Shown in pieces: positions 3,682 to 26,630 of a stretch of DNA of 64,000 nt; position 1 is the stretch's first letter; the number at the start of each line of letters is the position of its first letter. Origin of the DNA: Burkholderiaceae bacterium (GTDB lineage Bacteria > Pseudomonadota > Gammaproteobacteria > Burkholderiales > Burkholderiaceae_C). Below the pieces are notes generated by a model that was given only the letters and a program-made list of their open reading frames with translations, was not told the DNA's origin and did not search any database. A program made the position numbers and the translations under genes. Location: contig CP126124.1 of the NCBI GenBank assembly GCA_030123545.1, positions 1,451,784 through 1,515,783 on the forward strand, read 5' to 3'.

Positions 3682-4713
3682 ATGAGCAGCGATGCGGGCG
3701 GAACGAAGCGGCGGGTCAACATCTCGGACGTGGCGCGCGAGGCGGGCGTGTCGCCGACCACCGTCTCGCATGCGCTGAACGGGCGGGGCCAGGTCGATCT
3801 GCGCACGCGCAAGCGGGTCGAGACCGCCGCCGCCAAGCTCGGGTACCGGCCGAACCGCCATGCGCAGCGCTTGCGCACCGGCGAGGCGCACATGATTGCG
3901 CTGCTGTCTTCGATGCCGTTTGCGATTGCCGGCGGGCCGTCACGGCTTGGTTTCCTGATGGAGATCGCCGCGGTCGCGGCGACCGCGGCGCTGACCCGCG
4001 GCCTGGCACTGGTGCTGGCGCCGCCGATGGAAAACGGCGCGGTCCCGCTGGATCTGCTGGACGTCGATGGGGCGCTGGTGGTCGAGCCGTCGGCGCGGGA
4101 TCCGAACATCGAGGTGCTGCAGCAGCGCGGCCTGCCGGTGGTCGCGATCGGCCGCCAGCCGGGCTCCGGCGACACCGTGCCGTTCGTCGAAATCCATTCG
4201 GCCGAGACGACGCAGCGGCTGCTCGACCACCTGTATATCCAAGGCGCGCGCAAGGTGGCGATGGTACTTGGATCGGCCCAGCGGAACTCCTATCTCGAGG
4301 CCGAGGCGGTTTATCGGGCCGCCGCCCTGCAGCGCGACGCCCCCTGCCTGCTGATGCACGCGGACGAGCAGCAGGGCGAGGCCGGCGGCTACCAGGCGAC
4401 GATGGCGTTGCTCTCAAAGCATCCCGACATCGACGCGTTCTGCGTGACGGTCGATGCGTTCGCGGTCGGCGCGGTGCGGGCGCTGCAGGACGCCGGCCGC
4501 CGCATCCCGCAGGACGTGATGGTCGTCACCCGCTACGACGGGCTGCGCGCGCAGACCTGCGAGCCGCCGCTGACCGCGATCGACATGTGTCTGGATCAGA
4601 CCGCGGACCTGGCGGTCGCCCTGTTGTTCGAGCATCTGCGCGGTGATGGGACGACGCGCAGCGTGCCGGGGCCGCAGACTCGCCTCGTGCCCCGTGCGTC
4701 GTCGCTGCGCTGA
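3682..4713 (+). CDS. LacI-family transcriptional regulator
   Basis: N-terminal HTH NISDVAREAGVSPTTVSHALNG followed by a periplasmic-binding-protein-like sugar-binding fold. Divergent from the permease operon. Confidence 0.85.
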   Translation: MSSDAGGTKRRVNISDVAREAGVSPTTVSHALNGRGQVDLRTRKRVETAAAKLGYRPNRHAQRLRTGEAHMIALLSSMPFAIAGGPSRLGFLMEIAAVAATAALTRGLALVLAPPMENGAVPLDLLDVDGALVVEPSARDPNIEVLQQRGLPVVAIGRQPGSGDTVPFVEIHSAETTQRLLDHLYIQGARKVAMVLGSAQRNSYLEAEAVYRAAALQRDAPCLLMHADEQQGEAGGYQATMALLSKHPDIDAFCVTVDAFAVGAVRALQDAGRRIPQDVMVVTRYDGLRAQTCEPPLTAIDMCLDQTADLAVALLFEHLRGDGTTRSVPGPQTRLVPRASSLR

Positions 4714-4745
4714 AATTCAGGCGAACCGCCGGCGCCGTGGCCGCG

Positions 4746-5024
4746 CTACTTGTCGGTCACCTGCACGAAGATCTCGCCCGGCTTGACCATGCCCAGTTCC
4801 ATGCGCGCCTTTTCCTCGATCATGTCGCGCCCGTTCTTCAGGTCCGCGACCTCGGAGCGCAACTGTTCGTTCGCGATCTGGGTCTGCGTGTTGGCGGTGT
4901 GCAGCGCTGCGAGCTTCTCGCGCATCTGATGCACGTCGGGGATGCTGCCGCGGCCGGTCCACAGCTGCACCTGCAACACCGCCAGCAGCACCAGCAGCAC
5001 CACCATCGCGAAGCGCGCGCCCAT
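4746..5024 (-). CDS. ftsB: cell division protein FtsB
   Basis: 92 aa: MGARFAMVVLLVLLAVLQVQLW (TM segment), then a coiled coil, then EEKARMELGMVKPGEIF. Sits immediately downstream of eno as usual. Only the 3' end of track ORF 4746..6254 is real. Confidence 0.85.
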   Translation of the reverse strand: MGARFAMVVLLVLLAVLQVQLWTGRGSIPDVHQMREKLAALHTANTQTQIANEQLRSEVADLKNGRDMIEEKARMELGMVKPGEIFVQVTDK

Positions 5025-11549: not shown

Positions 11550-12704
11550 ATGAACATCACTCGCGCGTCGGCGCTGCTCGGAGGCCTCAGCCCCGCGCAG
11601 TTCATGAAACGGCATTGGCAAAAAAAGCCGCTGCTGGTGCGTCAGGCCGTGCCGGGCGTCGCGCCGCCGATGGGGCGCGCGGCGCTGTTCGAGCTCGCGG
11701 GGCAGGGCGGAGTCGAGTCGCGCCTCGTCGAACGCGATGCCGAGGGCTGGCGACTGCGCAGCGGCCCGTTCGCTCGCCGGTCGTTGCCGCCGCTCGCGCG
11801 TCCCGGATGGACACTGCTGGTGCAAGGCGTCGACCTGCATCTGGACGCGGCGCACGAGTTGCTGCAGCGCTTTCGCTTCATCCCCGACGCACGGCTGGAC
11901 GACCTGATGATCAGCTACGCGACCGACGGCGGCGGCGTCGGTCCGCATTTCGACAGCTACGACGTGTTCCTGCTGCAAGTGCAGGGGCGCCGCCGCTGGC
12001 GCATCGGTCGTCAGCGTGACCTGACGCTGCAAGCCGGGGCGCCGCTCAAGCTGCTGGCGCGGTTCACGCCGGAGCAGACCTTCGACCTCGACCCGGGCGA
12101 CATGCTGTACCTGCCGCCGCGCTGGGCGCACGACGGCGTCGCGCTCGGTGCATGCATGACCTGCTCGATCGGCTTTCGCGCGCCGGCCGCGCACGAGCTC
12201 GCGCGCGAACTGATGCACCGTATCGCCGACGCGCATGGGGACGCGGTCGGCGCCGCTGCCAGACCCTCGCTGTACCGCGACTCGGACCAGCCGGCCGCGG
12301 CCTCGCCCGGCCGGATTCCGTCCGCGCTGCAGGCGTTCGCGCAGCGCGCTCTGCACGCCGCGCAGCGCGATCCGCTGGCGCTGTCGCGCGCACTCGGTGA
12401 AGTGTTGTGCGAACCGAAGGCGACGGTCTGGTTCGAGCGGCGGCCGACGCCGCGCCGGCTGCAGCACCTGGTGCTTGATCGGCGCACGCGCATGCTGTTC
12501 GACGAGCACCATGTGTTTATCAATGGCGAGTCTCATCGCGCGCGCGGACAGGGCGCCGCGCTGCTGCGCCGGCTCGCGGATCGGCGCATGCTGGGCCCAA
12601 GCGATCTGCGCGACGCAGGCCCGGCACTGCGAGCGCTGCTGAGTAGCTGGTGCGAGGCCGGTTGGCTGCATCCGTCCGATCCGGCTGCCGATGACGCGGC
12701 GTAG
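11550..12704 (+). CDS. cupin-4 / JmjC-domain protein (ribosomal oxygenase RoxA/YcfD-like)
   Basis: Starts MNITRASALLGGLSPAQFMKRHWQKKPLL. Fe ligands in GGGVGPHFDSYDVFLLQ...WAHDGVA. The upstream part of track ORF 11073..12704 is antisense to the FKBP gene. Confidence 0.75.
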   Translation: MNITRASALLGGLSPAQFMKRHWQKKPLLVRQAVPGVAPPMGRAALFELAGQGGVESRLVERDAEGWRLRSGPFARRSLPPLARPGWTLLVQGVDLHLDAAHELLQRFRFIPDARLDDLMISYATDGGGVGPHFDSYDVFLLQVQGRRRWRIGRQRDLTLQAGAPLKLLARFTPEQTFDLDPGDMLYLPPRWAHDGVALGACMTCSIGFRAPAAHELARELMHRIADAHGDAVGAAARPSLYRDSDQPAAASPGRIPSALQAFAQRALHAAQRDPLALSRALGEVLCEPKATVWFERRPTPRRLQHLVLDRRTRMLFDEHHVFINGESHRARGQGAALLRRLADRRMLGPSDLRDAGPALRALLSSWCEAGWLHPSDPAADDAA

Positions 12705-15216: not shown

Positions 15217-16382
15217 TCAAGAAGACGCCTGCGGCGGCGGGAGCCGCACCCGCCGCTTTGCCTGCCGGCTACGCCGGCATCCACAGCGGCATCGTGGAGC
15301 TGCTTGGCGCTGCGCGCCAGGCGGCGGCACGCAGCGTCAATGCGCTGATGACGGCGAGCTATTGGGAGATTGGCCGCCGCATAGTGGAGGCCGAGCAACA
15401 GGGCAAACGACGTGCGGGTTACGGTGAGCAGTTGATGGAGCGACTGTCCACTGATTTGACCGCGCAGTTTGGGCGGGGCTTTGGCGTGAACAACCTGGAG
15501 AACATGCGGCGGTTCTTCCTCGCATACCCTGTCTCCGAGATTTCCCAGACACTGTCTGGGAAATTGGACAACGAGCTGCCCGACGAGAAATCCCAGACAG
15601 TGTCTGGGAAATTGAGCCTCGCCGAGCTGGCACAGGTGTTCACGCTGCCGTGGTCGGCCTATGTGCGGCTGCTGGTGGTCAAGGACAACCATGCCCGGCG
15701 CTTCTACGAAGCCGAGGCACTGCGCGGCGGCTGGAGCGTGCGCCAGCTTGACCGGCAGATTGGCAGCCAGTTTTACGAGCGCACCGCCTTGTCCAAGGAT
15801 AAGGCGGCGATGCTGGTCAAGGGAGCGGTGGCGAGGCCCGAGGATGCCGTCACGCCCGACGACGCGATCAAAGATCCGTATGTGCTGGAGTTCCTGAATC
15901 TCAAGGACGAGTATTCGGAATCCGATCTGGAGGCCGCGTTGATCCAGCGGCTGGAGGATTTTCTGCTGGAGCTGGGCGAAGGCTTCACCTTCGTCGGCCG
16001 GCAGCGGCGCTTGCGCATTGACCAGACCTGGTATCGGGTCGATCTGCTGTTCTACCATCGCAAGTTGCGTTGCTTGGTCATCATCGACTTGAAGCTGGGC
16101 AGCCTGACCCATGCGGACGTGGGCCAGATGCACATGTATTGCAACTACGCCAAGGAGCATTGGGCCTATCCCGATGAGAACCCGCCCGTGGGGTTGATTC
16201 TCTGTGCTGACAAGGGCCATGCGCTGGCGCGGTATGCCTTGGAAGGTTTGCCGACGAAGGTGATGGCGGCGAACTACCGTACCGTGTTGCCAGATGCCGA
16301 GCTGTTGCAGAAAGAGCTGGAAACCACGCGGCGCTTGCTGGAGTCGCGTGTGGTGAGGCAGCCCAAGAAGCTCCGGCAATAA
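15213..16382 (+). CDS. YhcG/DUF1016-family PD-(D/E)XK nuclease-domain protein
   Basis: 389 aa: NALMTASYWEIGRRIVE, LPWSAYVRLL, and a C-terminal RIDQTWYRVDLLFYHRKLRCLVIIDLKLG nuclease core. ATGA overlap with the int stop. Confidence 0.75.
   Translation: MIKKTPAAAGAAPAALPAGYAGIHSGIVELLGAARQAAARSVNALMTASYWEIGRRIVEAEQQGKRRAGYGEQLMERLSTDLTAQFGRGFGVNNLENMRRFFLAYPVSEISQTLSGKLDNELPDEKSQTVSGKLSLAELAQVFTLPWSAYVRLLVVKDNHARRFYEAEALRGGWSVRQLDRQIGSQFYERTALSKDKAAMLVKGAVARPEDAVTPDDAIKDPYVLEFLNLKDEYSESDLEAALIQRLEDFLLELGEGFTFVGRQRRLRIDQTWYRVDLLFYHRKLRCLVIIDLKLGSLTHADVGQMHMYCNYAKEHWAYPDENPPVGLILCADKGHALARYALEGLPTKVMAANYRTVLPDAELLQKELETTRRLLESRVVRQPKKLRQ
15541..15609. repeat. two palindromes (TTTCCCAGACAcTGTCTGGGAAA and TCCCAGACAgTGTCTGGGA) inside the DUF1016 CDS
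   Basis: 15541-15563 (11-bp arms) and 15591-15609 (9-bp arms). They encode the tandem peptide SQTLSGKL / SQTVSGKL. Confidence 0.8.
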
Positions 16383-16406
16383 CCGGGCGTCCCGGCGTGC
16401 CGCCGT

Positions 16407-16507
16407 CGGGCTCTCGGGCTGCGCCCCGCGCTTCGTGCCGAATCGCGGCCATCCGGCTTTGATCCCTGGCGCCTCCGGCCCTCTCGGGCCTGCGCGCTGC
16501 GCTTGCC
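16407..16507 (+). repeat. B-type non-coding repeat, copy B1
   Basis: CGGGCT.TCGGGCTGCGCCCC...GGCCAT.CGGCTT..ATCCCT...GCCTGCGCGCTGCGCTTGCC. Homologous to 22846-22946 and 24074-24177. Confidence 0.8.
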
Positions 16508-16539
16508 CAAAGGCGGGTGTGTGCAGTGGGCGGGGTGTA

Positions 16540-16707
16540 GGCGGTCTTGCTGTTCCCTTCACCGTATCACGGCGTTCTCGCCGTCAAGGGCGGCGCGCGC
16601 GGGTGCGCGCTTGCGTCCTGGCGGCCGTCTGCGACCCCTGACTGCTTGCGCTGCGCCGTGCTCCCGACGGTTCCGGGCAATTCCGCCCGAGCAACCGGAG
16701 CACGATC
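16540..16707 (+). repeat. A-type leader repeat, copy A1 (ends at the radC RBS/ATG)
   Basis: 61 nt identical to A2 (GGCGGTCTTGCTGTTCCCTTCACCGTATCACGGCGTTCTCGCCGTCAAGGGCGGCGCGCGC), then a 50-nt identical block, ending GCAACCGGAG-N7-ATG. Confidence 0.9.
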
Positions 16708-17217
16708 ATGTCGCAACTGTCCTTTTCCTCGTTCGATGCCTCGCTGATGGTGCGTGATGCGCAGGGCCGCTACCTGCTGGCGACGACTGACCAGATTCTG
16801 GAGGCCGCGCGCCAGGCCATCGAGCACAAGATGCAGCGCGGTGCCTCGTTCACTTCACCGGCGGCGGTCAAGGAGTACCTGTGCGCCAAGCTGGCCGGCT
16901 ACGAGCACGAAGTCTTTGCGGTGCTGTTCCTCGATTCGCAGCATCGCCTGATCGAATACACAGAGATGTTTCGCGGCACCATCGACAGTGCATCGGTGTA
17001 CCCGCGCGAGTTGGTCAAGGAGGCACTGCGGCTCAATGCGGCGGCGGTCATCGTGTCGCACAACCATCCGAGCGGGAACCCGGAGCCAAGCGCGGCCGAC
17101 CGGGCGCTGACCCAGCGGCTCAAGGAGTCGCTGGCGCTGGTGGACGTTCGCACGTTGGATCACATCGTCGTCACGGGCAGCAGCACCACGTCATTCGCCG
17201 AACGCGGCCTGATCTGA
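16708..17217 (+). CDS. radC: RadC-family JAB/MPN-domain protein
   Basis: 169 aa with the HNHPSGNPEPSAADRALTQRL metalloprotease motif. Confidence 0.9.
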   Translation: MSQLSFSSFDASLMVRDAQGRYLLATTDQILEAARQAIEHKMQRGASFTSPAAVKEYLCAKLAGYEHEVFAVLFLDSQHRLIEYTEMFRGTIDSASVYPRELVKEALRLNAAAVIVSHNHPSGNPEPSAADRALTQRLKESLALVDVRTLDHIVVTGSSTTSFAERGLI

Positions 17218-17220
17218 CCG

Positions 17221-17242
17221 AGGGGGCTTCAGCCCCCTTTTT
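17221..17242 (+). terminator. rho-independent terminator after radC
   Basis: AGGGGGC-TTCA-GCCCCCT followed by TTTTT. Confidence 0.8.
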
Positions 17243-17265
17243 GCTGCGTCCGGCAGCGCAACTCC

Positions 17266-17296
17266 GGCCCGCGCGGGCCTGCGCGCTTCGCTTGCC
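17266..17296 (+). repeat. B-type repeat, short copy B2 (3' core only)
   Basis: CGCGGGCCTGCGCGCTTCGCTTGCC core, followed by a G-rich spacer and A2. Confidence 0.7.
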
Positions 17297-17326
17297 GAAA
17301 GCCGAGGAGCATGGAGGTGTGAGGGA

Positions 17327-17492
17327 GGCGGTCTTGCTGTTCCCTTCACCGTATCACGGCGTTCTCGCCGTCAAGGGCGGCGCGCGCCTTGCGCGCTGGC
17401 GTCCTGGCGGCCGTCTGCGACCCCTGACTGCTTGCGCTGCGCCGTGCTGGCGACGGTTCCGGGCAATTCCGCCCGTGCAACCGGAGATCGTC
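17327..17492 (+). repeat. A-type leader repeat, copy A2
   Basis: See A1. Ends GCAACCGGAG-N6-ATG of the Zn-ribbon orphan. Confidence 0.9.
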
Positions 17493-17885
17493 ATGAACGA
17501 CAAATCACACGTTTCACTCGAACAGCATGTTTGCCTCGTTTGCGGCACGGCGTTCGATACCGGCGCCATCCTGCTGGACAAGCGCCTGCGCGCGAGCATG
17601 GAGCGCCATACGGCGACCGGCTGGGGTCTGTGCCCCGAGCATCGGAAGCTGGCCGACGATGGCTTCGTCGCGCTGGTCGAATGCGATCCGCAGCGCAGCG
17701 GTTCGCAGGCCGGTGGCCGCATGAAGCCCGAGCAGGCGTACCGGACGGGGCGGCTGGCGCACCTGCGGCGCACGGTGTTCGCGCAGATGTTCAACGTGCC
17801 GATCGCGGACGAGCAGGCTTGCGTGTTCGTCGAGCCTGGCGTGATCGACCAGTTGCAGTCGATGACGGCATCGGCGGCGAACTGA
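17493..17885 (+). CDS. hypothetical small protein with a CxxC...CPEH putative zinc ribbon
   Basis: 130 aa: MNDKSHVSLEQHVCLVCGTAFDTG...GWGLCPEHRKL. GGAG 6 nt upstream of the ATG. The upstream part of track ORF 16881..17885 is repeat A2. Confidence 0.6.
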   Translation: MNDKSHVSLEQHVCLVCGTAFDTGAILLDKRLRASMERHTATGWGLCPEHRKLADDGFVALVECDPQRSGSQAGGRMKPEQAYRTGRLAHLRRTVFAQMFNVPIADEQACVFVEPGVIDQLQSMTASAAN

Positions 17886-17904
17886 TCGCGCCGGACAGCC
17901 TTCG

Positions 17905-17939
17905 GTGCGTCGTCCCTGCGGGGGCGGCGCACTTTTTTT
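17905..17939 (+). terminator. rho-independent terminator after the Zn-ribbon gene
   Basis: GTGCGTCGTCCC-TGC-GGGGCGGCGCAC (12 bp including 2 G:U pairs) followed by T7. Confidence 0.8.
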
Positions 17940-17966
17940 CTGCTGCGCCCGGTGCCGGTTCCTCCG

Positions 17967-17996
17967 CGCCTGCGGCGCTGCGCGCTTCGCTTGCCA
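17967..17996 (+). repeat. B-type repeat, short copy B3
   Basis: GCGCCTGCGGCGCTGCGCGCTTCGCTTGCC, identical to the core of B5 (22917-22946). Confidence 0.75.
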
Positions 17997-18019
17997 GTCC
18001 GTGCCTTTGTTGGAGGGTG

Positions 18020-18184
18020 GCGGCTTGCTGTTCCCTTCATCGTGCCACGGCGTTCGCGCCGTCAAGGGCTGCGCGCCGAGGGCGCTTGCGTCCTGGCGGC
18101 CGTCGTTGCCCCCTGACTGCTTGCGCTGCGCCGTGCCCCGGAAGGGTCGGGCAATTCCGCCCGGCAACCTTTCAGGAGTTCACC
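18020..18184 (+). repeat. A-type leader repeat, copy A3 (diverged)
   Basis: GGCGGCTTGCTGTTCCCTTCATCGTGCCACGGCGTTCGCGCCGTCAAGGGC...CCTGACTGCTTGCGCTGCGCCGTGC...GGGCAATTCCGCCCGGCAACC, ending AGGAG-N7-ATG. Confidence 0.85.
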
Positions 18185-18535
18185 ATGAACCACGCACTCA
18201 TCACCGACGAGCAGCGCATCGTGCTGCTGGCCAATGGCCGCGAATCCTTGCAGAACCCGGACTTCGATCCGGCCCCCATGGTCAAGCTGTTCACGCCGGA
18301 TGCTGGCGCGACCTGGCTGCTGACCGAGATTGATCCCGATGACCACGACCACGCCTTCGGCCTTTACGACCTGGGGCTGGGTGAGCCGGAAATTGGCTGG
18401 GTCAGCCTGGGTGAGCTGGCGACGGTGCGCGGCGGGTTGGGCCTGCCGATTGAGCGCGACCTGTCTTTTCGGGCCGAGAAGCGGTTGAGCGCCTATGCGC
18501 ACGATGAGCGGCTGGCCGGGCGGGTCATCGTCTGA
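18185..18535 (+). CDS. DUF2958 domain protein (paralog 1)
   Basis: 116 aa: KLFTPDAGATWLLTEIDPDDHDHAFGLYDLGLGEPEIGWVSLGEL. Confidence 0.8.
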   Translation: MNHALITDEQRIVLLANGRESLQNPDFDPAPMVKLFTPDAGATWLLTEIDPDDHDHAFGLYDLGLGEPEIGWVSLGELATVRGGLGLPIERDLSFRAEKRLSAYAHDERLAGRVIV

Positions 18536-18591
18536 CCCGGCCCTGGGGGCGTCGCGGGACGCCCCTTCGCATCGCGCCCACGAGGCGCGAT

Positions 18592-18696
18592 GCCTGCGCG
18601 CCTTCGACTTGCTCTCCAGGGGAAAGCCCTGCGGGCTATCCCCGCCGCGCAGGCTTGGCGCCCCTGAACACCGCCGACCCGGCTACGCCGGATCGG
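18592..18696 (+). repeat. degenerate B tail plus C-type repeat, copy C1
   Basis: CTCCAGGGGAAAGCCCTGCGGGCTATCCCCGCCGCGCAGGCTTGGCGCCCCTGA...CCGGCTACGCCGGATCGG. Confidence 0.8.
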
Positions 18697-18849
18697 CCAG
18701 ACCACGGCAGTCGCTGTCGAACCTGTTTCCCGATGACTAGCACATGAGCTTGTGCATCAAGCATTGAAGTCCGGGCGTCCCCGGCCCCCTGCGAGATGGC
18801 CGGTCGCGCTGTCGTGCTGCGCATCGACCCCCCTGCGGGGTTTCGCCCC

Positions 18850-18934
18850 TGTCGGGCTTCCATCGTTCCCTCGCTCCGCTCGGCTGACGCCTCCGGCCCG
18901 GCTTCCAGCTTCGGGCCTGCGCGCTTCGCTTGCC
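18850..18934 (+). repeat. B-type repeat, diverged copy B4
   Basis: Ends with CGGGCCTGCGCGCTTCGCTTGCC, followed by a G-rich spacer as in B1-B3. Confidence 0.6.
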
Positions 18935-19274
18935 GTGCGGTCGGCGTGTGGGAAGGCCGTTGCCATGTCCAGCCGTCTTCCCTGACTTCATCACCTTGTC
19001 CGCGACTGTAGCCCGCGGCCTGGTGGCGTCAAGGCGCGCAGGGCCGTGTCCTCGGCTGCGCCTGCGGGCCGCACCAACCCTGCGCTTGTCTCCTTGACGG
19101 CCCCCGTCCACGGGCTCCCTTTCGTCGCGGGCGATGAACTCAGGAAAGACGGTGGCAACAGGGCCAACCGGGTTCCTCGTGCCGACCGCACCGAACAGCC
19201 GAAAGGCTGGGCTCCGAATCTAGGAATCCGGTGTGCGGTTTTCTTCAACAGCCATTTTGTTCAGGAGAAAGAGC

Positions 19275-20105
19275 ATGCAACTCGCATCCCGCTTCGCTTC
19301 CCACTCCCCGGCGCTGCGCAGCGACTACCCGCTGTCCGATGACCAGATTCATCGCGTGGCCCCGTCCATCTTCGCGGATGCCCCGCACGAAAGCCGTTCG
19401 CAGCGGTACGCCTATATCCCCACCGCCGCCGTACTGACCGAGCTTCGCAAAGAAGGCTTTCAGCCTTTCATGGTGACGCAGACCCGCGTGCGCGATGAAG
19501 GCAAGCGCGAGCACACGAAACACATGCTGCGCCTGCGCCATGCCAGCCAGATCAACGGCGCGGAGGCTAACGAAATCGTGCTGCTGAACTCCCATGACGG
19601 CACGAGCAGCTATCAGATGCTGGCCGGAATGTTCCGCTTCGTTTGCAGCAATGGCCTTGTCTGCGGCGACACCGTGGCGGACGTGCGCGTGCCCCACAAG
19701 GGCGACGTGGCCGGTTCCGTCATCGAAGGCGCTTTCGAGGTGTTGAGCGGCTTCGAGCGCGTGAAGGAATCCCGCGATGCCATGCGCGCAATCACGCTGG
19801 ACGAAGGCGAGTCCGAAGTGTTCGCCCGTTCCGCGCTGGCCCTCAAGTACGACCCCGCCGACAACAAGCCCGCGCCCATCACCGAATCGCAAATCCTGAT
19901 GCCGCGCCGGTTCGACGACCGCCGCCCCGACCTGTGGAGCGTGTTCAACCGCACGCAGGAGAACTTGACCAAGGGCGGATTGCATGGCCGCAGCGCCAAC
20001 GGACGCCGCCAGCAGACCCGACCCGTGCAGGGCATTGATTCCGATGTGCGCCTGAACCGCGCCCTCTGGATGCTGGCCGATGGCCTGCGCCAGTTGAAAG
20101 CCTGA
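19275..20105 (+). CDS. DUF932 domain protein
   Basis: 276 aa from MQLASRF (AGGAGA RBS): LLNSHDGTSSYQMLAGMFRFVCSNGLVCG. Confidence 0.8.
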   Translation: MQLASRFASHSPALRSDYPLSDDQIHRVAPSIFADAPHESRSQRYAYIPTAAVLTELRKEGFQPFMVTQTRVRDEGKREHTKHMLRLRHASQINGAEANEIVLLNSHDGTSSYQMLAGMFRFVCSNGLVCGDTVADVRVPHKGDVAGSVIEGAFEVLSGFERVKESRDAMRAITLDEGESEVFARSALALKYDPADNKPAPITESQILMPRRFDDRRPDLWSVFNRTQENLTKGGLHGRSANGRRQQTRPVQGIDSDVRLNRALWMLADGLRQLKA

Positions 20106-20170
20106 ACCGTTCCCCCGCCGGAGGGGCGGTTCCCCTCCATTCCCTTGTTTCACTCGATTGGAGATTCGCT

Positions 20171-22222
20171 ATGAACGCCGTTACCCAAACCGAAGCCCGC
20201 GCCATCCAAGCCCCCGCGCTGGAAGCCGCCGACCCGACCAAGAACCTGATTCTGGTTCCGCTGTCGCGGCTGGTGCTGCGCCCCACGGGCCGCAACGTGC
20301 GCAAGACCCCGCGCATGTCCATCCCCGAACTGGCTGCGAGCATCCAGCGCGTGGGCCTGCTGCAAAACCTGATCGTCATTGCATCCGCCGATGGCGAGCA
20401 TTACGAAGTCGTGGCCGGTGGCCGACGCCTCGCAGCCCTCAAGCTGCTGGCGAAAAAGCACCGCATCAGCAAGGAATGGGAAGTGCCTTGCCTGCTGGTG
20501 GCCGATGGCACCGCCCGCACGGCCAGCCTCACCGAAAACGTGCAGCGCGAAGCCATGCACCCCGCAGACCAGTTCGAGGCTTTCGCCGCGCTGGTGGCCG
20601 AAGGCCGTCCCATCGAGGACATTGCGGCAGATTTCTCCGTTACGCCGCTGGTGGTGCAGCGCCGATTGAAGCTGGCGAACGTCTCGCCCCGCCTCATGGC
20701 TGACTATCGCGCCGATGCCGTGAGCCTTGACCAGTTGATGGCCCTTGCCATCACCGATGACCACGCCGCGCAGGAAAGCGCGTTCTACGATGCGCCAACC
20801 TGGCAGCGCGGCCCGTCCGCGCTGCGCGAACGCCTCACCGAGCGCGAAATCGACGCCTACCGGCATCCGCTGGTGCGCTTCGTCGGGCTGGACACCTACG
20901 AGGCCGCAGGCGGTGGCATCCGCCGTGACCTGTTCGCGGAAGATGACGCGGGCGTGTATCTGACCGATGCCGCGCTGCTGGAACGGCTGGCGCAAGACAA
21001 GCTGGCAGGCATCGCCGCCACTGTCCGCGTCGAGGGTTGGGCGTGGGTGGATGCCACGCCGGGCGTGACCCATGCCGACCTGCACGCTTTCCAACGCGCA
21101 CCGAAGGAGCGCCGCGAACCGAACAAGCGCGAAGCGGCACGCATCGAGAGGCTGCAAGCCAAGATGCACGAACTGGCCGAAGCCGTGGATGCTGCGCTGG
21201 ACGCCGACGACGAGGACAAGGCCGACGCCTTGCAGGAGGAAGGCGAAACCCTGGGCGAGCAGTTGCAGGCGCTGGAAGATGGCTTGCAAGGGTACGGCGC
21301 GAACGTGAAGGCCGCAGCCGGTGCCATTGTCAGCATCGACCGCAACGGTGAGGCCGTCATTCATCGCGGCCTGATGCGCGAGGTCGAGGCCAAGGCGCTG
21401 CGCACACTGGAACGGCTGCGCCAAGGGTTCAGCGGCGAGGATGCCGAGAACAACGACGAAGGCGAGGACGACAAGCAACCCAAGAGCGTCGCCATGTCTG
21501 ACCGGCTGGCGCAACGCTTGAGCGCCCACCGCACCGCCGCGCTGCAAATCGAAGTCGCACGGCATCCGCAAGCCGCACTGGCTGCCGTGGTGCATGGCAT
21601 GGTGCAGACCGTCTTGCAGGAACGCCGCTACGGCCTCAACCGTGATTCTTTGCCGCTGGGCGTGAGCCTGAAAGTGCAAGACCGGCTGGAAGGCATGGCC
21701 CCGGACTGGCCTCACTCCGCCGCCGCCGTGGCACTGCGCGAACTGCAACAGGTGGCGGGCGAAGCCTTGCCGGAGGACAGCGCCGAACTGTTCGCCGCGC
21801 TGCTGGCGAAGCCGCAAGACGAACTGGTGCGGCTGCTGGCCGTGTGCGTGGCATCCACGGTGGACGTGGTGACGCCTCGCGCCACGCCGCGCCAGCCCGG
21901 CGCGGAACTGGCGCAGGCCGTGGGCCTCGACATGGCCGCATGGTGGAAGCCGACCGCCGAAGGCTACTTCAAGCACGTTTCCAAGGCCGTGATTCTGGAT
22001 GCCGTGGGCGCGTTTGCCCCGGAGTCCGTCACCCGGCTGGCGAAGCTCAAGAAGGCCGACATTGCCAGCGAAGCCGAGCGGCTGGCCGATGGCACGGGCT
22101 GGATGCCCGCCATCTTCAAGGCCGAAGGCCCGCAGGAGGCCCAGGAGGCAGGCCCGGAGCAGGACGCCCCGGAGGATGCCGAGGCAATGGCGGATGAACC
22201 CGCCGAGGCGCTGGCCGCTTGA
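20171..22222 (+). CDS. ParB/Srx-nuclease-domain protein with a long acidic C-terminal region
   Basis: 683 aa: LQNLIVIASADGEHYEVVAGGRRLAAL, TENVQREAMHPADQFEAF. Confidence 0.85.
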   Translation: MNAVTQTEARAIQAPALEAADPTKNLILVPLSRLVLRPTGRNVRKTPRMSIPELAASIQRVGLLQNLIVIASADGEHYEVVAGGRRLAALKLLAKKHRISKEWEVPCLLVADGTARTASLTENVQREAMHPADQFEAFAALVAEGRPIEDIAADFSVTPLVVQRRLKLANVSPRLMADYRADAVSLDQLMALAITDDHAAQESAFYDAPTWQRGPSALRERLTEREIDAYRHPLVRFVGLDTYEAAGGGIRRDLFAEDDAGVYLTDAALLERLAQDKLAGIAATVRVEGWAWVDATPGVTHADLHAFQRAPKERREPNKREAARIERLQAKMHELAEAVDAALDADDEDKADALQEEGETLGEQLQALEDGLQGYGANVKAAAGAIVSIDRNGEAVIHRGLMREVEAKALRTLERLRQGFSGEDAENNDEGEDDKQPKSVAMSDRLAQRLSAHRTAALQIEVARHPQAALAAVVHGMVQTVLQERRYGLNRDSLPLGVSLKVQDRLEGMAPDWPHSAAAVALRELQQVAGEALPEDSAELFAALLAKPQDELVRLLAVCVASTVDVVTPRATPRQPGAELAQAVGLDMAAWWKPTAEGYFKHVSKAVILDAVGAFAPESVTRLAKLKKADIASEAERLADGTGWMPAIFKAEGPQEAQEAGPEQDAPEDAEAMADEPAEALAA

Positions 22223-22284
22223 CCCGTGCAGAAGGCGAACGCCCCGGCTTCGACCGGGGCGCTTCGCTGGAAGGAAAAGCTCCC

Positions 22285-22494
22285 ATGATCCGTACCACCA
22301 CCAGCCGCTCGCGCATGGCGGCGATCTACGCCCCCGGCACGGTGCGCGCCCGCCGCTGGCACGGCGATGGCGACGTGCGCGGCTACCGCCAGCCCTCGGG
22401 CTGGTCGGCCCGCGCCGACCTCACCGACATTCACCCCATCACGGGCTGCGCCTTGCCGCGTGCCGTGTGGTGGCTCATCGAGACGAAGGAATAA
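22285..22494 (+). CDS. hypothetical 69-aa protein
   Basis: MIRTTTSRSRMAAIYAPGTVRARRWHGDGD... Purine-rich GGAAGGAAAAG ends 6 nt before the ATG. Last gene of the DUF932-ParB operon. Confidence 0.45.
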   Translation: MIRTTTSRSRMAAIYAPGTVRARRWHGDGDVRGYRQPSGWSARADLTDIHPITGCALPRAVWWLIETKE

Positions 22495-22845
22495 CCGCGT
22501 TCAGCACCGCGCCCAGGTCGTTCCGTCCTGGGCGCGGTGAACTTCAAAATCCGGGCGCGGCGGTGGCCGCGCCCGATGTTCAAGCCCAACAGCCAAATCA
22601 GAACGCCGCCGCCTTCGCGGTGGCTCATGCGGCGGCGTTGAAGTAGGCGGGCCTCCCGCCCGGTAATGGGCAGGCCCACATGGGCCTGCAAGCCGAAGCG
22701 CCCACCCTGCGCGGGAATCATCAGCAGTTTTCGGCTTGCCGCGTGCATACCCCGCAGCGTGGGCCGCTTCCATTTCATCGGCGGCATATCCGCGTTTCCT
22801 GCATGGAAATCTGGAACGGCCTGGGCGTGTCGGCTCGATGCGCCG

Positions 22846-23028
22846 CCGGGCTTTCGGGCTGCGCCCCGTGCCGTCTTTGCCGTCACGGCCATTCGGCTTC
22901 AATCCCTCACGCCTTCGCGCCTGCGGCGCTGCGCGCTTCGCTTGCCTCCGGGGGATCGGCACAAGGCCCATCCCCGCCGCGCAGGCTTGGCGCCCCTCGA
23001 TGCCGCCGAACCGGCTGCGCCGGATCGG
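22846..23028 (+). repeat. B5-C2 composite non-coding repeat
   Basis: Aligns along its length, with indels, to 24074-24259. Confidence 0.85.
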
Positions 23029-23596
23029 CCCGGCCAGTGCCCCGCCGCGATGGACAGTGCATTGGCGAACACGCTGGAGCCTGCTGCGGCAGGTTGTGCA
23101 AATGCGTGCCCTCCCCAACGCTGGCGGTTCCTGCCCATCACGTCACGAAGGACGGTTCACGGACATCCCGCCCGGCATCGCTATGGAGCTTCCACGCCAC
23201 GCCTCAAGACCAGCGCCGCAAGGTGCGGCAGGGGTGTTCTCGCTTGTCGTCGGGTGGTTGACCTGGCCCACGTCAGTGGGCGAGTCGGTGCAGCCTTCGT
23301 GCGGGGATGCCGAGCCGGCCTTGTCTCCTTTCGGTGCGGTTCGGCCCAAGGCGTCCTTGTGTTGTTGTGAATCCTGGCGGGGGCGCGGCTGCGCCTCGGG
23401 CTTCATGGCTGCAACCGTCCAGCGAAAACAATTTCCCCTGCGCTGCGCGCATTCCTCGCGGGACAAATTCTTTTCGCCTCCCGGCTCTCCACTGCGTTGC
23501 GACCACAAGCGGTGCAGCCAGCCCGTCCCCCGCCGGCCGGATCACAACAAGGACGCGATGGGCGCGAACCTTGTTCAACCGAACGGAGAAAACATC

Positions 23597-23911
23597 ATGG
23601 CCAACATCGGCACCTTCACCGCAGACAAAGACGGCTTCGCCGGCACGCTTCGCACCCTGACGCTCAACGTCAAGGTCAAGCTGGTTCCCAACGACAAGGG
23701 GGACAACGAGAAAGCACCGGACTTCCGCTTGCAGGCCGCCAGCCACGACATCGGCGCGGCATGGAAGAAGACCAGCGAGGCCGGGCGGGAGTACATCTCC
23801 GTGACCCTCGACGATCCTTCGTTCCCGGCCACGGTCTACGCCCGCCTGATCGAAGGCGAGAACGGCACGCACGACCTGATCTGGTCGCGCAGCAAGCCCC
23901 AGGCGGCCTGA
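23597..23911 (+). CDS. DUF736 domain protein
   Basis: 104 aa: [31 protein letters not shown]... GGAGAA RBS. The 5' 860 nt of track ORF 22736..23911 is non-coding repeat DNA. Confidence 0.85.
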
Positions 23912-24073
23912 CGGCCGCCAGCGCCCCGCCCACGGCGGCGGGGCGCTGTGCTACTTGGATCGGCAGACAGAGAGGCTTGGCTCTCCCAGCTTCGTGATGG
24001 TGGTGGTCGGGCAGCATCACAATGACCTCGGGTTGCCAGGGCGAATGCAGGGCGATTCGGCGCACTGCGCCGA

Positions 24074-24259
24074 CCGGGCTTTGCGGGCTGCGCCCCATGC
24101 CGACTTCGCCGTCATGGCCATTCGGCTTCAATCCCTATCGCGGCTTCGCGCCGGTGGCGCTGCGCGCTGCGCTTGCCTCCAGGGGAAAGCCCTGCGGCCT
24201 ATCCCCGCCGCGCGATGCTTGGCGCCCCTGAAGTCCCCGAACCGGCTGCGCCGGATCGG
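24074..24259 (+). repeat. B6-C3 composite non-coding repeat
   Basis: See B5-C2. Lies between the DUF736 stop and the 3' end of the XRE gene. Confidence 0.85.
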
Positions 24260-24270
24260 TGGCCCAGCGC

Positions 24271-24564
24271 CTACGGCTGGGCCGCTGCTGCGAGCTGGCT
24301 TTCAGCCTCGCTCATCAGCACTGCCGTGCTGCATTCGAGTGCGCTGGCAATTTTGAAGATGATCGCCAGCGTGGGCATGTGTTCGCCACGCTCGACCTTG
24401 CCCATGTGCGAACGCTCGATGCCGGCGAGGTTCGCCAGCGATTCCTGCGCGATGCCGCGCTCCGTCCGCAGCGCGCGCACCGCCGCGCCGAAGGCTTGAG
24501 CCAATTCGGCATCGTAGGTGGTGGCGCCCGCTGGCCGGCCGCGGTGGATGGATCGCTTCTGCAT
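24271..24564 (-). CDS. XRE-family helix-turn-helix repressor
   Basis: 97 aa from MQKRSIHRG: RTERGIAQESLANLAGIERSHMGKVERGEHMPTLAIIFKIASAL. Confidence 0.85.
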   Translation of the reverse strand: MQKRSIHRGRPAGATTYDAELAQAFGAAVRALRTERGIAQESLANLAGIERSHMGKVERGEHMPTLAIIFKIASALECSTAVLMSEAESQLAAAAQP

Positions 24565-24822
24565 GGACAGAAGCGTCAATTCGCAGCACAATTAAAACCA
24601 CGTTATCTTTAACTCATTCATGCCTTTGGCCCTTATTCGTGCTTTTACGGAAATCCGCTTCTGCGGATTCCGACAGAACCGGAAAACCGCCAACGTGTAT
24701 TTGCAGATTTCTACAATTGAGCTTTTGCGCTTTCGTGTTTCCACGGCTTTCGTGGAATACGCATCCATGCTTTGGCGTGAATGTGCAAAACCGACATTCC
24801 GTGTTGGAACAGGAGCACCACG

Positions 24823-25173
24823 ATGAACGCTCCCCTCGTCACCGATGCGCAGCGCGCCGCGCTGCTGGAGAACGGACGGCGGGCCGCCGCTGGTGAACCG
24901 CACGACCCGTTGCCGGTTGTGCGGCTGTTCACTCCCGACGCGCACGCCACCTGGCTGCTGACCTCGCTCGATCCCGTCGATGGCGACACGGCCTACGGCC
25001 TGATCGACCTGGGAATCAGCTTGCCCGAGCTGGGGACGGTGAAACTTTCCGACCTGGCTTCCATCGTCGGGCCGCGCCAGCAACCCGTGATGCGGGATCG
25101 GTATTTCCAGGCGATGCGCCCGCTGTCGGAATATCTGCGCCTGGCGCAGGAAAACGGTTCCGTCGTCGATTGA
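24823..25173 (+). CDS. DUF2958 domain protein (paralog 2)
   Basis: 116 aa: VRLFTPDAHATWLLTSLDPVDGDTAYGLIDLGISLPELGTVKLSDL. AGGAG RBS. Confidence 0.8.
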   Translation: MNAPLVTDAQRAALLENGRRAAAGEPHDPLPVVRLFTPDAHATWLLTSLDPVDGDTAYGLIDLGISLPELGTVKLSDLASIVGPRQQPVMRDRYFQAMRPLSEYLRLAQENGSVVD

Positions 25174-25503: not shown

Positions 25504-26265
25504 ATGGTCAATCCTCATCATGTCGCGCACTGGTATCCCACTGCGGCTTACCTCTATGTCTTGTGGCTGGATGCGCTTGCGCTGGCCTGGGAGTACCTGC
25601 GCAGGCACCCCGATTACCGGCTCGACTGGCTGCGCCGTGCGCGCCGCCCCGATGCGGCGCATCGCTGGGGCTTGCGCGTGCTGGAAGACCCGGCGCTGGA
25701 TGCGCGCGATGCGCATCCGGCCTGGCAGCCCGGCCAAGCTGATGTAGTGCAGCTCTACCCCGATGCCGATCCGCCCGTGGATGCCGAGCCCTTCGCGTTC
25801 TGGCGTATCCCCGGCCACAAGCAACTTCTCCACGATGGCAAGGCACTGGCGCTGATCGCGCGCAGCCCCGGCCAGTGCCTGCGCTTCGCGCTCGCGCCTG
25901 GCCTGCAAGACGGCATGGCTGTCGCCTATGCCCATCGCGGCGGCGCCTTCGCGCCTACGCGCGGTCATGCGCTCGACGCGGCCCAGGCCGCCACCAAGTC
26001 CAGGCCAGCACCCTCCGCGCTGCTGGAACTGCATACGTTGCAGGCGCTCGACGCGACCCTGGCGGGCTCGTCCTTCCGCGACGTGGCCGAAGGCTTGTTC
26101 GGCGTGGACGCCGCGGCCGGTTGGTACAGCGACGGTGGCCTGCGCTCCAAGGTGCGTCGCCTGGTGCGGCGCGGCGATGCGTTGATGCGCGGCGGCTATC
26201 GCCGCCTAGCACAACTGTCGCCGCTTGAGAAGGGTCGTTTTGAAGGCAACGCAAAACGACCCTGA
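25504..26265 (+). CDS. DUF6499/DUF2285-domain transcriptional regulator (FseA-like activator candidate)
   Basis: 253 aa: WEYLRRHPDYRLDW N-terminal domain, and a C-terminal LQALDATLAGSSFRDVAEGLFG HTH-like region. Confidence 0.7.
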   Translation: MVNPHHVAHWYPTAAYLYVLWLDALALAWEYLRRHPDYRLDWLRRARRPDAAHRWGLRVLEDPALDARDAHPAWQPGQADVVQLYPDADPPVDAEPFAFWRIPGHKQLLHDGKALALIARSPGQCLRFALAPGLQDGMAVAYAHRGGAFAPTRGHALDAAQAATKSRPAPSALLELHTLQALDATLAGSSFRDVAEGLFGVDAAAGWYSDGGLRSKVRRLVRRGDALMRGGYRRLAQLSPLEKGRFEGNAKRP

Positions 26266-26348
26266 GCAGAAGGGCCGCGTTTTCTGAGACTGCCTCCATC
26301 CGGTTGCGCTGTGTGGCCGGAGCTTTGAAAGCTATGGAGGTTCACACC

Positions 26349-26630
26349 ATGCGTCCCGCTCCCTTGCGGCCTGCCGCTACTGTCTCGACCGCTGCCGCGC
26401 AGCCCCAACGCTATCTCACCAACGACGAAGCCGCCGAATACCTGCGCCTGTCGCCGCGCACGCTGGAAAAGCAGCGCGTGCTGGGTGGCGGCCCCAAGTT
26501 CCGCAAGTTCGGCCGCCGCGTCATGTACGCCGTGGCCGATCTCGATGCCTGGGCTTCCGAGCGCAGCTTCGAGAGCACATCCGATCCCGAGTACGCCGAG
26601 CAGCATTCGGCGGACAGCCGTGCGCGCTGA
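26349..26630 (+). CDS. excisionase-family (MerR-like) HTH protein; recombination directionality factor candidate
   Basis: YLTNDEAAEYLRLSPRTLEKQRVLGGGPKFRKFGRRVMYAVADLDAW. GGAGG RBS. Confidence 0.7.
   Translation: MRPAPLRPAATVSTAAAQPQRYLTNDEAAEYLRLSPRTLEKQRVLGGGPKFRKFGRRVMYAVADLDAWASERSFESTSDPEYAEQHSADSRAR

Follow-up and report, generated by a model that had tools for sequence, protein, structure and literature searches.

The Tn4371-family integrative and conjugative element (ICE) carried by a 64,000-nucleotide stretch of a Burkholderiaceae bacterium (GenBank assembly GCA_030123545.1, contig CP126124.1, positions 1,451,784 to 1,515,783, forward strand; hereafter the window) raises the question of what is served by two families of repeats, B and C, that recur between the genes following its integrase. 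A preliminary description of this DNA, made from the sequence alone, had taken changed but still pairing stems in these repeats as the mark of a selected nucleic-acid structure, with candidate roles in priming, promotion or protein binding on single-stranded DNA (ssDNA) after transfer. The present analysis establishes that B and C are real, conserved, polar, non-coding hairpin modules of conjugative elements, and their sequence features indicate that they probably act on the single strand entering a new host.

All copies of B and C lie on the + strand between 16.4 and 24.3 kb (Table 1), and both families were re-found by sequence comparison and alignment where they had been placed before. The 18-nt B core, CTGCGCGCTKCGCTTGCC, has six matches in the window, on the + strand only and all within 16490-24177, against 0.55 in shuffled sequence, and the C motifs occur exactly three times. 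Seven B cores, including one degenerate copy, are sited ahead of radC, orf130, and the genes for DUF2958, DUF932, and DUF736 proteins. The composites B5-C2 and B6-C3 are separated in alignments by indels that break the reading frame, and they are therefore non-coding, as had been claimed. Two placements required amendment. B4, listed at 18850-18934, is present, but its extent was wrong, as it forms part of a full-length copy of an IncN-like subtype, which is followed by a long hairpin and by neither C nor the leader repeat designated family A. Of the three instances in which B was said to run directly into C, the two composites stand, whereas C1 is preceded by a degenerate core that had not been listed and whose equivalents in related ICEs are intact.

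The anatomy of B was worked out by comparison with divergent copies. A full-length unit opens with the 4-bp hairpin H1 (GGGC-TGC-GCCC, or GTGC-TGC-GCAT in the IncN-like subtype), followed by the bipartite hairpin H2, in which an internal C/T mismatch separates the outer stem from an inner stem of 3-6 bp that ends in a triloop, as exemplified by CCGCG-C-TTCG-TGC-CGAA-T-CGCGG in B1 and TCGAG-C-CGCC-TGC-GGCG-T-CTCG in many plasmids. The outer stems quoted in the preliminary description (CCGCG/CGCGG at 16426-16448, CCGTG/CACGG at 22866-22888, and CCATG/CATGG at 24095-24117) are exact, and the quoted C stems are also correct, but the 13-nt loop attributed to this hairpin is itself a stem-loop, with the internal mismatch kept in 123 of 124 B variants. 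H2 is succeeded by a conserved unpaired stretch, GGCTTC(A/C)ATC, by an optional insert of 18-19 nt in one subtype, and by H3, with a G+C stem that varies and a loop 3-14 nt in size, just 5' of the core, which comes last; H1 and H3 are additions to the earlier account. The short copies B2 and B3 consist of H3 and the core alone, and this is also the form of the intact equivalents of the degenerate core.

C is composed of the hairpin Ca (GGGGA..TCCCC, with a changeable inner stem), the invariant centre CCGCCGCGC-N2-4-GCTTGGCGCCCC, and the hairpin Cc (CCGA-A-CCGGC-TGC-GCCGG-A-TCGG), in which an A/A mismatch is present in 109 of 124 C variants. Since the mismatches in H2 and Cc are conserved, they point to specific recognition, beyond stability. 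The invariant centre (18640-18665, 22972-22997, and 24203-24229), GCCGCGC-N-GCTTGGCGCC, resembles the B core CTGCGCGC-N-GCTTGCC, taken in the form GCGCGC...GCTTGSC for this comparison, and this resemblance suggests that C may be derived from a duplicated short B unit with one extra hairpin. Read on the complementary strand, B presents three small G+C hairpins, mostly with GNA-triloop caps, together with conserved unpaired stretches and the core GGCAA-GCGNAGC-GCGCAG.

Evidence that the pairing is selected comes from larger alignments. For C, one genome per species was scanned with the invariant centre only, leaving both hairpins free to vary, which yielded at least 120 stretches of 8 kb from Beta- and Gammaproteobacteria and an alignment of 124 distinct copies in MAFFT. 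Paired bases occupy 91.3% of cells, and two-sided changes affect 12 of 21 pairs, compared with 5.4 in shuffles; the 99 double-change cells compare with 24 in shuffles, none of 500 reaching the observed count, and with 4-25 in slid controls. For B, a covariance model built from 15 diverse seeds provided 150 aligned matches from ICEs and plasmids, 124 of them distinct; because column-based MAFFT misaligned 157 B variants owing to their variable inner-stem lengths, the covariance-model alignment was used, with a plain MAFFT alignment of the seeds as a check. In the former, 95.4% of cells are paired (77.5% when shuffled), double changes occur in 11 of 17 pairs and in 303 cells (97 in shuffles, 0 of 500 reaching the observed count), and the covariation score is 0.41, compared with 0.135 for shuffled and at most 0.06 for slid controls. 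As an alignment of this kind is fitted to structure, the count was repeated on the MAFFT seeds, giving 94.9% paired cells, 47 double-change cells compared with 18, and a covariation score of 0.50 compared with 0.18. Several B pairs exhibit three to five pair types, such as GC/UA/GU/AU/CG at one H2 position. The selected structure proposed earlier is thus borne out by compensatory change far above both kinds of control. A long-range CCAGGGG/CCCCTG pairing in C displayed no covariation when the alignment was inspected by eye, and single-sequence RNA folding of B and C was uninformative, with energies barely distinct from shuffles at a background of 66-70% G+C. The comparison with Rfam suggested in the preliminary description returned no match at the gathering score in the window, and chance-level matches only at E values up to 10 in 16000-25000.

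The distribution of the repeats associates them with conjugation. The C-bearing 8-kb tiles hold one to three copies each, and 117 of 120 also encode homologues of ICE module proteins. A B query of 5,426 complete Escherichia coli genomes located 692 places in only 285 genomes, 688 of them on plasmids and four chromosomal. A blastn search of PLSDB with the B5-C2 composite matched 376 plasmids, its B part matching IncN, Pseudomonas, Burkholderia, and other plasmids, while a B query from an Alicycliphilus plasmid matched 1,761 plasmids at 5,012 places, 1,535 of these plasmids (87%) being typed as conjugative; copies are likewise carried by MOBF plasmids of Pseudomonas, Burkholderia, and Alicycliphilus. 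The polarity is strict: B and C copies are co-stranded in 134 of 134 loci, and their strand is that of the RadC, DUF2958, DUF932, ParB, and DUF736 genes in 129 of 129. The preliminary description had named as a ground for refutation that the repeats match host repetitive extragenic palindromic (REP) sequences or bacterial interspersed mosaic elements (BIME) spread over the chromosome. These are short, G+C-rich, hairpin-forming, and intergenic like B and C, but they occur as many scattered chromosomal copies in both orientations, whereas B and C number one to three per 8 kb in one orientation; confinement to conjugative elements, a single orientation, and near-absence from chromosomes led to the rejection of this identity.

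The polarity also indicates which strand matters. Genes adjoining B point to the origin of transfer (oriT) in R46, IncN, Pseudomonas, and B. glumae plasmids, the order being stbABC, oriT, coupling protein, and MobF relaxase in the first three, whereas at the B. glumae locus the coupling protein and the MobF relaxase are present but no stb operon is annotated. Conjugative transfer runs 5' to 3' from nic. In MOBF11 plasmids, stbABC marks the leading side of oriT (PMC3098194). From gene direction, leading side, and transfer direction together, it follows that the transferred strand is the complement of B, which is the template of those genes. For the ICE, the complement of B and C can be inferred to be the transferred strand by homology with IncN plasmids.

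Sequence features of the complementary strand agree with this assignment. H1 loops follow the pattern TNC (TGC, TAC, TTC) in 105 of 124 B copies, and their complements are GNA triloops closed by C-G; TGC predominates in the other loops, and the sole variable position of the B core is the N of GNA. Within the 3,226 nt of non-coding DNA in 16383-24270, the - strand has 27 copies of GCGNAGC and the + strand none, where a first-order Markov model predicts 4.9 +/- 2.2 and 2.5, respectively. An IncN plasmid has 17 against 1 in its leading region and 10 against 11 elsewhere, and the bias recurs in three other plasmids. Under DNA folding parameters, the - strand is the stabler of the two for 122 of 124 variants of B and for 110 of 124 of C. 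Outside one H1 pair, A-C outnumbers G-T wobble (54 against 20 for B, 53 against 20 for C), which favours the - strand as well. The mini-hairpin DNA motif GCGNAGC/GCGNNAGC is extraordinarily stable and poorly bound by the protein that binds single-stranded DNA (SSB), and such motifs occur where primase starts on G4, St-1, and alpha3, in RSF1010 ssiA, and in the N4 hairpin promoters (PMC13037366). Strict polarity, the greater stability of the complementary strand, and the 27:0 bias in GCGNAGC together support the setting proposed in the preliminary description, namely ssDNA after transfer.

A kinship absent from that description was revealed by plasmid searches. The B covariance model (R1) matches R46 at 22048-22146, directly after stbC, at 23760-23862 (ardA-ccgAI), and at 26265-26367 (upstream of ccgD), and blastn and nhmmer match B to an IncN plasmid; C has no IncN match in the searches made. 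Because the model matches the intergenic regions of R46 that hold conserved upstream (CUP) repeats, B is, on sequence matching, the distal part of the IncN CUP repeat (R46/pKM101). In pKM101, CUP repeats stand ahead of the leading-region transcription units as conserved stretches exceeding 400 bp (PMC6294495); their description is credited to Delver and Belogurov 1997 (cited in PMC6294495, PMC5371602, and PMC6289460), and their promoter-proximal part contains ArdK sites and promoters (PMC5371602; PMC6289460). The accessible literature, to which the original 1997 CUP paper does not belong, describes neither C nor the anatomy of hairpins and covariation, nor the strand-specific signature of mini-hairpins. 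In an IncN plasmid, B stands after a terminator and ahead of a long hairpin, which precedes the next gene. Boundary copies, at 4613-4749 of NZ_CP027258.1 (IncN; this copy lacks the core), 12120-12252 of record L136, and 22048-22146 of R46, lie between the last operon pointing to oriT and an opposite sprT/ardC-stbCBA block, with no gene following on their own strand; similarly, B6 lies between DUF736 (+) and the XRE gene (-), with no + strand gene after it. In NZ_CP027258.1, the promoter-proximal CUP at 1104-1375 forms a long hairpin on the transferred strand (z = -5.4), at whose apex lie two GCGAAGC motifs, and three other CUP-like regions have a strong + strand TTGACT-17-TATACT promoter.

The ICE modules are accompanied by other structured elements; the recurring order runs from the preceding operon and a terminator through B, to which C may be joined, and a promoter-like structure to the next operon. 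Upstream of DUF932 and of DUF736, the - strand folds into a long imperfect hairpin of some 300 nt in each case; the two adjoin B4 and C2, resemble Frpo, and are, on modelled folds, candidate ssDNA promoters of the ICE. The former (DNA fold -99.5 kcal/mol, z = -7.4) bears TTGACG-16-TACAGT on its - strand (19032 to 19005), on the arm distal to the gene, and would thereby have, in silico, the geometry of a Frpo-type ssDNA promoter; no other good sigma-70-like site lies upstream of + strand genes in the scanned interval 16300-24700. The latter folds strongly (-86 kcal/mol, z = -5.8), but the scan found no promoter hexamers in it. The leader repeat of family A, some 160 nt long, contains TTGACG-15-TACGGT and GCGNAGC motifs on the - strand; its interpretation as a simple long hairpin was rejected, the DNA fold not being significant (z = -0.95). 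In B and C themselves, no promoter hexamers were found, and a sigma-54 or sigma-70 promoter in the B core was rejected by eye and by scan. The promoter-like hairpins are separate, adjacent elements; of the roles suggested earlier for B and C, priming site, ssDNA promoter, and protein-binding hairpin all stay candidates.

The reading that we prefer, and that we judge to be just on the probable side given these sequence features, is that B and C are polar leading-region ssDNA modules on the transferred strand, with priming of the complementary strand, as single-strand initiation signals (ssi), as their role and a polymerase roadblock as a close alternative. The incoming conjugative strand enters 5' first; its complement is therefore made discontinuously, and primers have to be laid repeatedly as the DNA enters. 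In the recipient, compact hairpin clusters, expected to be poor substrates for SSB, would mark fixed points on the incoming strand, at which the host primase or primosome would start discontinuous synthesis of the complement. One signal would be provided per operon, plus one at the boundary with opposite genes (XRE in the ICE; ardC/sprT-stbCBA in the IncN and Pseudomonas plasmids), a placement that would fit because an ssDNA promoter is of no use to genes of opposite strand, whose expression depends on the DNA having become duplex. A feature of G4-type ssi sites is found in B and C, namely a covariation-supported cluster of template-strand hairpins with a mini-hairpin motif in the core.

Several points weigh against this reading. 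Shared ancestry swells the counts of covarying cells, as a few subfamilies supply many cells and the statistics ignore the tree. The wobble evidence is mixed, since one H1 pair is G-T on the + strand in 40 variants, a whole subfamily. The CTG triplet of E. coli DnaG primase is found on the - strand of the B-C junction (CCAGGGG on the + strand) in most but not all C copies, and no consistent CTG stands beside the B-A units. A scan for RP4-type nick sequences, meant to place oriT, gave chance-level matches only, none of them intergenic near the relaxase gene. Frpo-type transcripts could already furnish primers, making extra priming sites redundant. Finally, a pure roadblock does not account for the strong sequence conservation seen in the unpaired stretches, which implies a binding partner.

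The closest rival to priming is a roadblock or insulator, in which the clusters would stall the incoming DNA polymerase just ahead of the ssDNA-promoter hairpins without priming, so that the promoter stays single-stranded and active for longer, prolonging early expression. The arrangement suits it, as B lies on the transferred strand immediately 3' of the promoter-like hairpins, the side at which polymerase arrives, and mini-hairpins, besides their extraordinary stability, pause polymerases (PMC13037366). In F, moreover, the stem-loop of the ssDNA promoter is a mapped barrier to complementary-strand synthesis that is resolved by UvrD, and leading-region ssDNA hairpins both prime and block this synthesis (bioRxiv 10.64898/2026.01.09.698686). 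Yet B6-C3 and the boundary copies of the IncN and Pseudomonas plasmids have no promoter hairpin to shield, and a barrier needs only stability, whereas the unpaired stretches and the internal mismatch are near-invariant; a roadblock without priming is held to be rather unlikely.

The remaining accounts are less well supported than priming or a roadblock. That B and C work as structured RNA, in leaders or 3' ends of + strand mRNA or in a - strand antisense RNA started from the long-hairpin hexamers in duplex DNA, appears improbable. Covariation would be expected equally for RNA, GNA/GNRA loops and G-A mismatches are also RNA-like, and TTGACG-16-TACAGT, if active in duplex form, would transcribe leftwards across the complements of B4 and C1. 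Rfam, however, contains no match; B2 and B3 follow intrinsic terminators ahead of the next leader and may lack + strand transcription; the UGC loops of the + strand, which folds less well, are no known stable RNA motif; no terminator bounds a - strand RNA; and the stability of GCGNAGC is specific to DNA (PMC13037366).

Little probability is likewise given to duplex regulatory DNA, by which B and C would be operator or upstream-element arrays for a repressor and their inverted repeats protein-binding palindromes, as proposed for CUP, ArdK, and ArdR. This proposal draws on the IncN system, in which ArdK binding to CUP was demonstrated by electrophoretic mobility shift assay and regulation by ArdK and ArdR proposed (PMC6289460, PMC5371602), and on a core conserved in sequence and not in pairing. 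The ArdK sites, though, are described in the promoter-proximal CUP, while B is the distal part; and no ArdK, ArdR, TrfB-type, or SprT homologue was found within the 64-kb window, nor, in the scanned interval 16300-24700, any + strand sigma-70-like site upstream of genes, where CUP is characterised by an ArdK site and a strong promoter under ArdK/ArdR control. In the absence of an ArdK, ArdR, or TrfB-type protein, the conservation of B is not explained by that repressor. Furthermore, stems with GCG, GTG, and ATG coexist in B1, B5, and B6 of a single element, which fits structure and not the half-sites of one protein, and an operator cannot explain the 27:0 strand bias or the strict polarity.

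Functionless selfish or neutral repeats, whether miniature mobile sequences, recombination-spread sequences, or duplication remnants, are very improbable: although short, long, and degenerate B forms coexist and, in IncN2 plasmids, recombination and inversions proceed through CUP repeats (PMC5371602), the copies keep syntenic positions and a single orientation in 134 loci, are conserved with compensatory changes from enterobacterial IncN plasmids to Burkholderiales ICEs, and scarcely occur on chromosomes (in E. coli, 4 of 692 places).

Returning to priming, a broader proposal can be advanced tentatively, as possible rather than probable: B and the ICE-specific C may represent a widespread, unrecognised class of cis signals, consisting of mini-hairpins with GNA caps, one array for each leading-region operon of IncN-like and other MOBF plasmids and of Tn4371-family ICEs, through which a conserved host factor (primase, primosome, or polymerase) would start or pace discontinuous synthesis of the complementary strand, CUP then being a composite of ssDNA signal and promoter. 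The priming, copying, and expression of the incoming strand in its first minutes have been studied mainly in IncF and IncI plasmids, with Frpo/ssi and the UvrD-resolved roadblock, and the accessible literature defines no such cis-elements for IncN-like and other MOBF plasmids or Tn4371-type ICEs, which spread carbapenemase and metal-resistance genes. The candidate module, of about 100 nt, covariation-backed, and strictly polar, occurs in a large family of ICEs and in over 1,700 plasmids that have been sequenced. If the proposal holds, it would revise the view of CUP, treated as duplex regulatory DNA since 1997, and if the modules are needed for establishment, they would offer a common target across unrelated backbones.

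Table 1. Repeats, associated structures, and genes of the ICE module (positions are those of the window; every B and C copy is read on the + strand, and the proposed acting strand is the - strand throughout).
Feature	Position	Strand	Parts or content	Evidence and setting
B1, full-length	16405-16507	described on +; proposed acting strand -	H1 16416-16426; H2 16427-16447; single-stranded GGCTTTGATCCC; H3 16477-16490; core 16490-16507	covariance model, 99.2 bits; between DUF1016 gene and A1 leader of radC
B2, short form	17262-17296	+	H3 GGCCC-GCGC-GGGCC 17266-17279; core 17279-17296	sequence, alignment; 3' of radC terminator, ahead of A2
B3, short form	17962-17995	+	H3 GCGCC-TGC-GGCGC 17966-17978; core 17978-17995	sequence, alignment; 3' of intrinsic terminator 17904-17933, ahead of A3
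Degenerate B core	18594-18617	+	CTGCGCGCCTTCGACTTGCTCTCC	alignment; directly 5' of C1
C1	18614-18697	+	Ca 18619-18643; invariant centre CCGCCGCGC..GCTTGGCGCCCC; Cc 18673-18697	
B4, full-length, IncN-like subtype	18803-18934	+	H1 18814-18824; H2 18825-18845; 18-19-nt insert; H3 18895-18917; core 18917-18934	covariance model, 67.7 bits, and nhmmer; directly ahead of long hairpin upstream of DUF932
B5, full-length	22845-22946	+	H1 22856-22866; H2 22867-22887; H3 22917-22929; core 22929-22946	covariance model, 103.3 bits
C2	22947-23029	+	Ca 22951-22975 (type II inner stem); invariant centre; Cc 23005-23029	
B6, full-length	24073-24177	+	H1 24085-24095; H2 24096-24116; H3 24148-24160; core 24160-24177	covariance model, 84.4 bits
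C3	24178-24259	+	Ca 24182-24206; invariant centre; Cc 24237-24259	ends 12 nt short of XRE stop codon
Long imperfect hairpin	18935-19274	-		upstream of DUF932
Long imperfect hairpin	23300-23596	-		upstream of DUF736
Family A leader repeats	16539-16700, 17326-17486, 18017-18175	-		between B core and radC, orf130, DUF2958, respectively
Genes from integrase to DUF736	from 14017	+	integrase, DUF1016 nuclease, RadC, 130-aa open reading frame (orf130), DUF2958, DUF932, 683-aa ParB-like, 69-aa open reading frame, DUF736	
XRE regulator gene	right of DUF736	-		
Genes beyond XRE	rightwards		second DUF2958, RovC-like regulator, RepA, ParA, DUF2840, TraF-type peptidase, relaxase	
Relaxase gene	~30.2-32.2 kb		Relaxase and DUF3363 domains	

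The ICE module, with its integrase at the left and further genes rightwards, has a syntenic counterpart in Acidovorax ebreus TPSY (CP001392), in which B and C occupy matching relative positions. The second DUF2958 paralogue lies at 24781-25173, just past the XRE gene, and the interval between them, 24592-24780, is A+T-rich, unlike the remaining region. The DUF1016/YhcG nuclease reading frame contains two 31-nt direct repeats, at 15536-15566 and 15584-15614 with a spacing of 48 nt, each of them near-palindromic (TTTCCCAGACACTGTCTGGGAAA). A search for tRNA and tmRNA found none. In the 48-kb record NZ_CP115268.1 (P. aeruginosa pF021), the gene set is repeated at an offset of about 24.7 kb, with the look of a head-to-tail dimer or an assembly artefact.

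Among known systems, the CUP repeat is the nearest relative of B, both being non-coding units repeated once per leading-region operon and co-oriented with genes that point to oriT. CUP, however, exceeds 400 bp and is described as duplex regulatory DNA with an ArdK site and a promoter, whereas the ICE has neither an ArdK homologue nor a + strand sigma-70-like promoter, its unit consisting of B plus family A, a long hairpin, or C, the last without an IncN counterpart in the searches made. The Frpo/ssi ssDNA promoter of F is reportedly due to Masai and Arai 1997. Promoters of this type are present in the leading regions of F, ColIb-P9, and pESBL (PMC12672017; PMC11541004). Like B and C as proposed here, they are leading-region secondary structures of the transferred strand, upstream of early genes templated by that strand; they differ in being a single long imperfect hairpin that rebuilds the -35 and -10 elements, where B and C group several hairpins of 4-10 bp and lack hexamers. 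The origins of G4, St-1, and alpha3 and the ssiA and ssiB sites of RSF1010 share with B and C two or three adjacent template-strand hairpins, a mini-hairpin by an unpaired conserved stretch, and an expected poor binding of SSB. Origins of the G4 type occur once per genome, whereas B and C occur once per operon, with a CTG triplet that is not consistently placed and no sequence similarity found to phage genomes.

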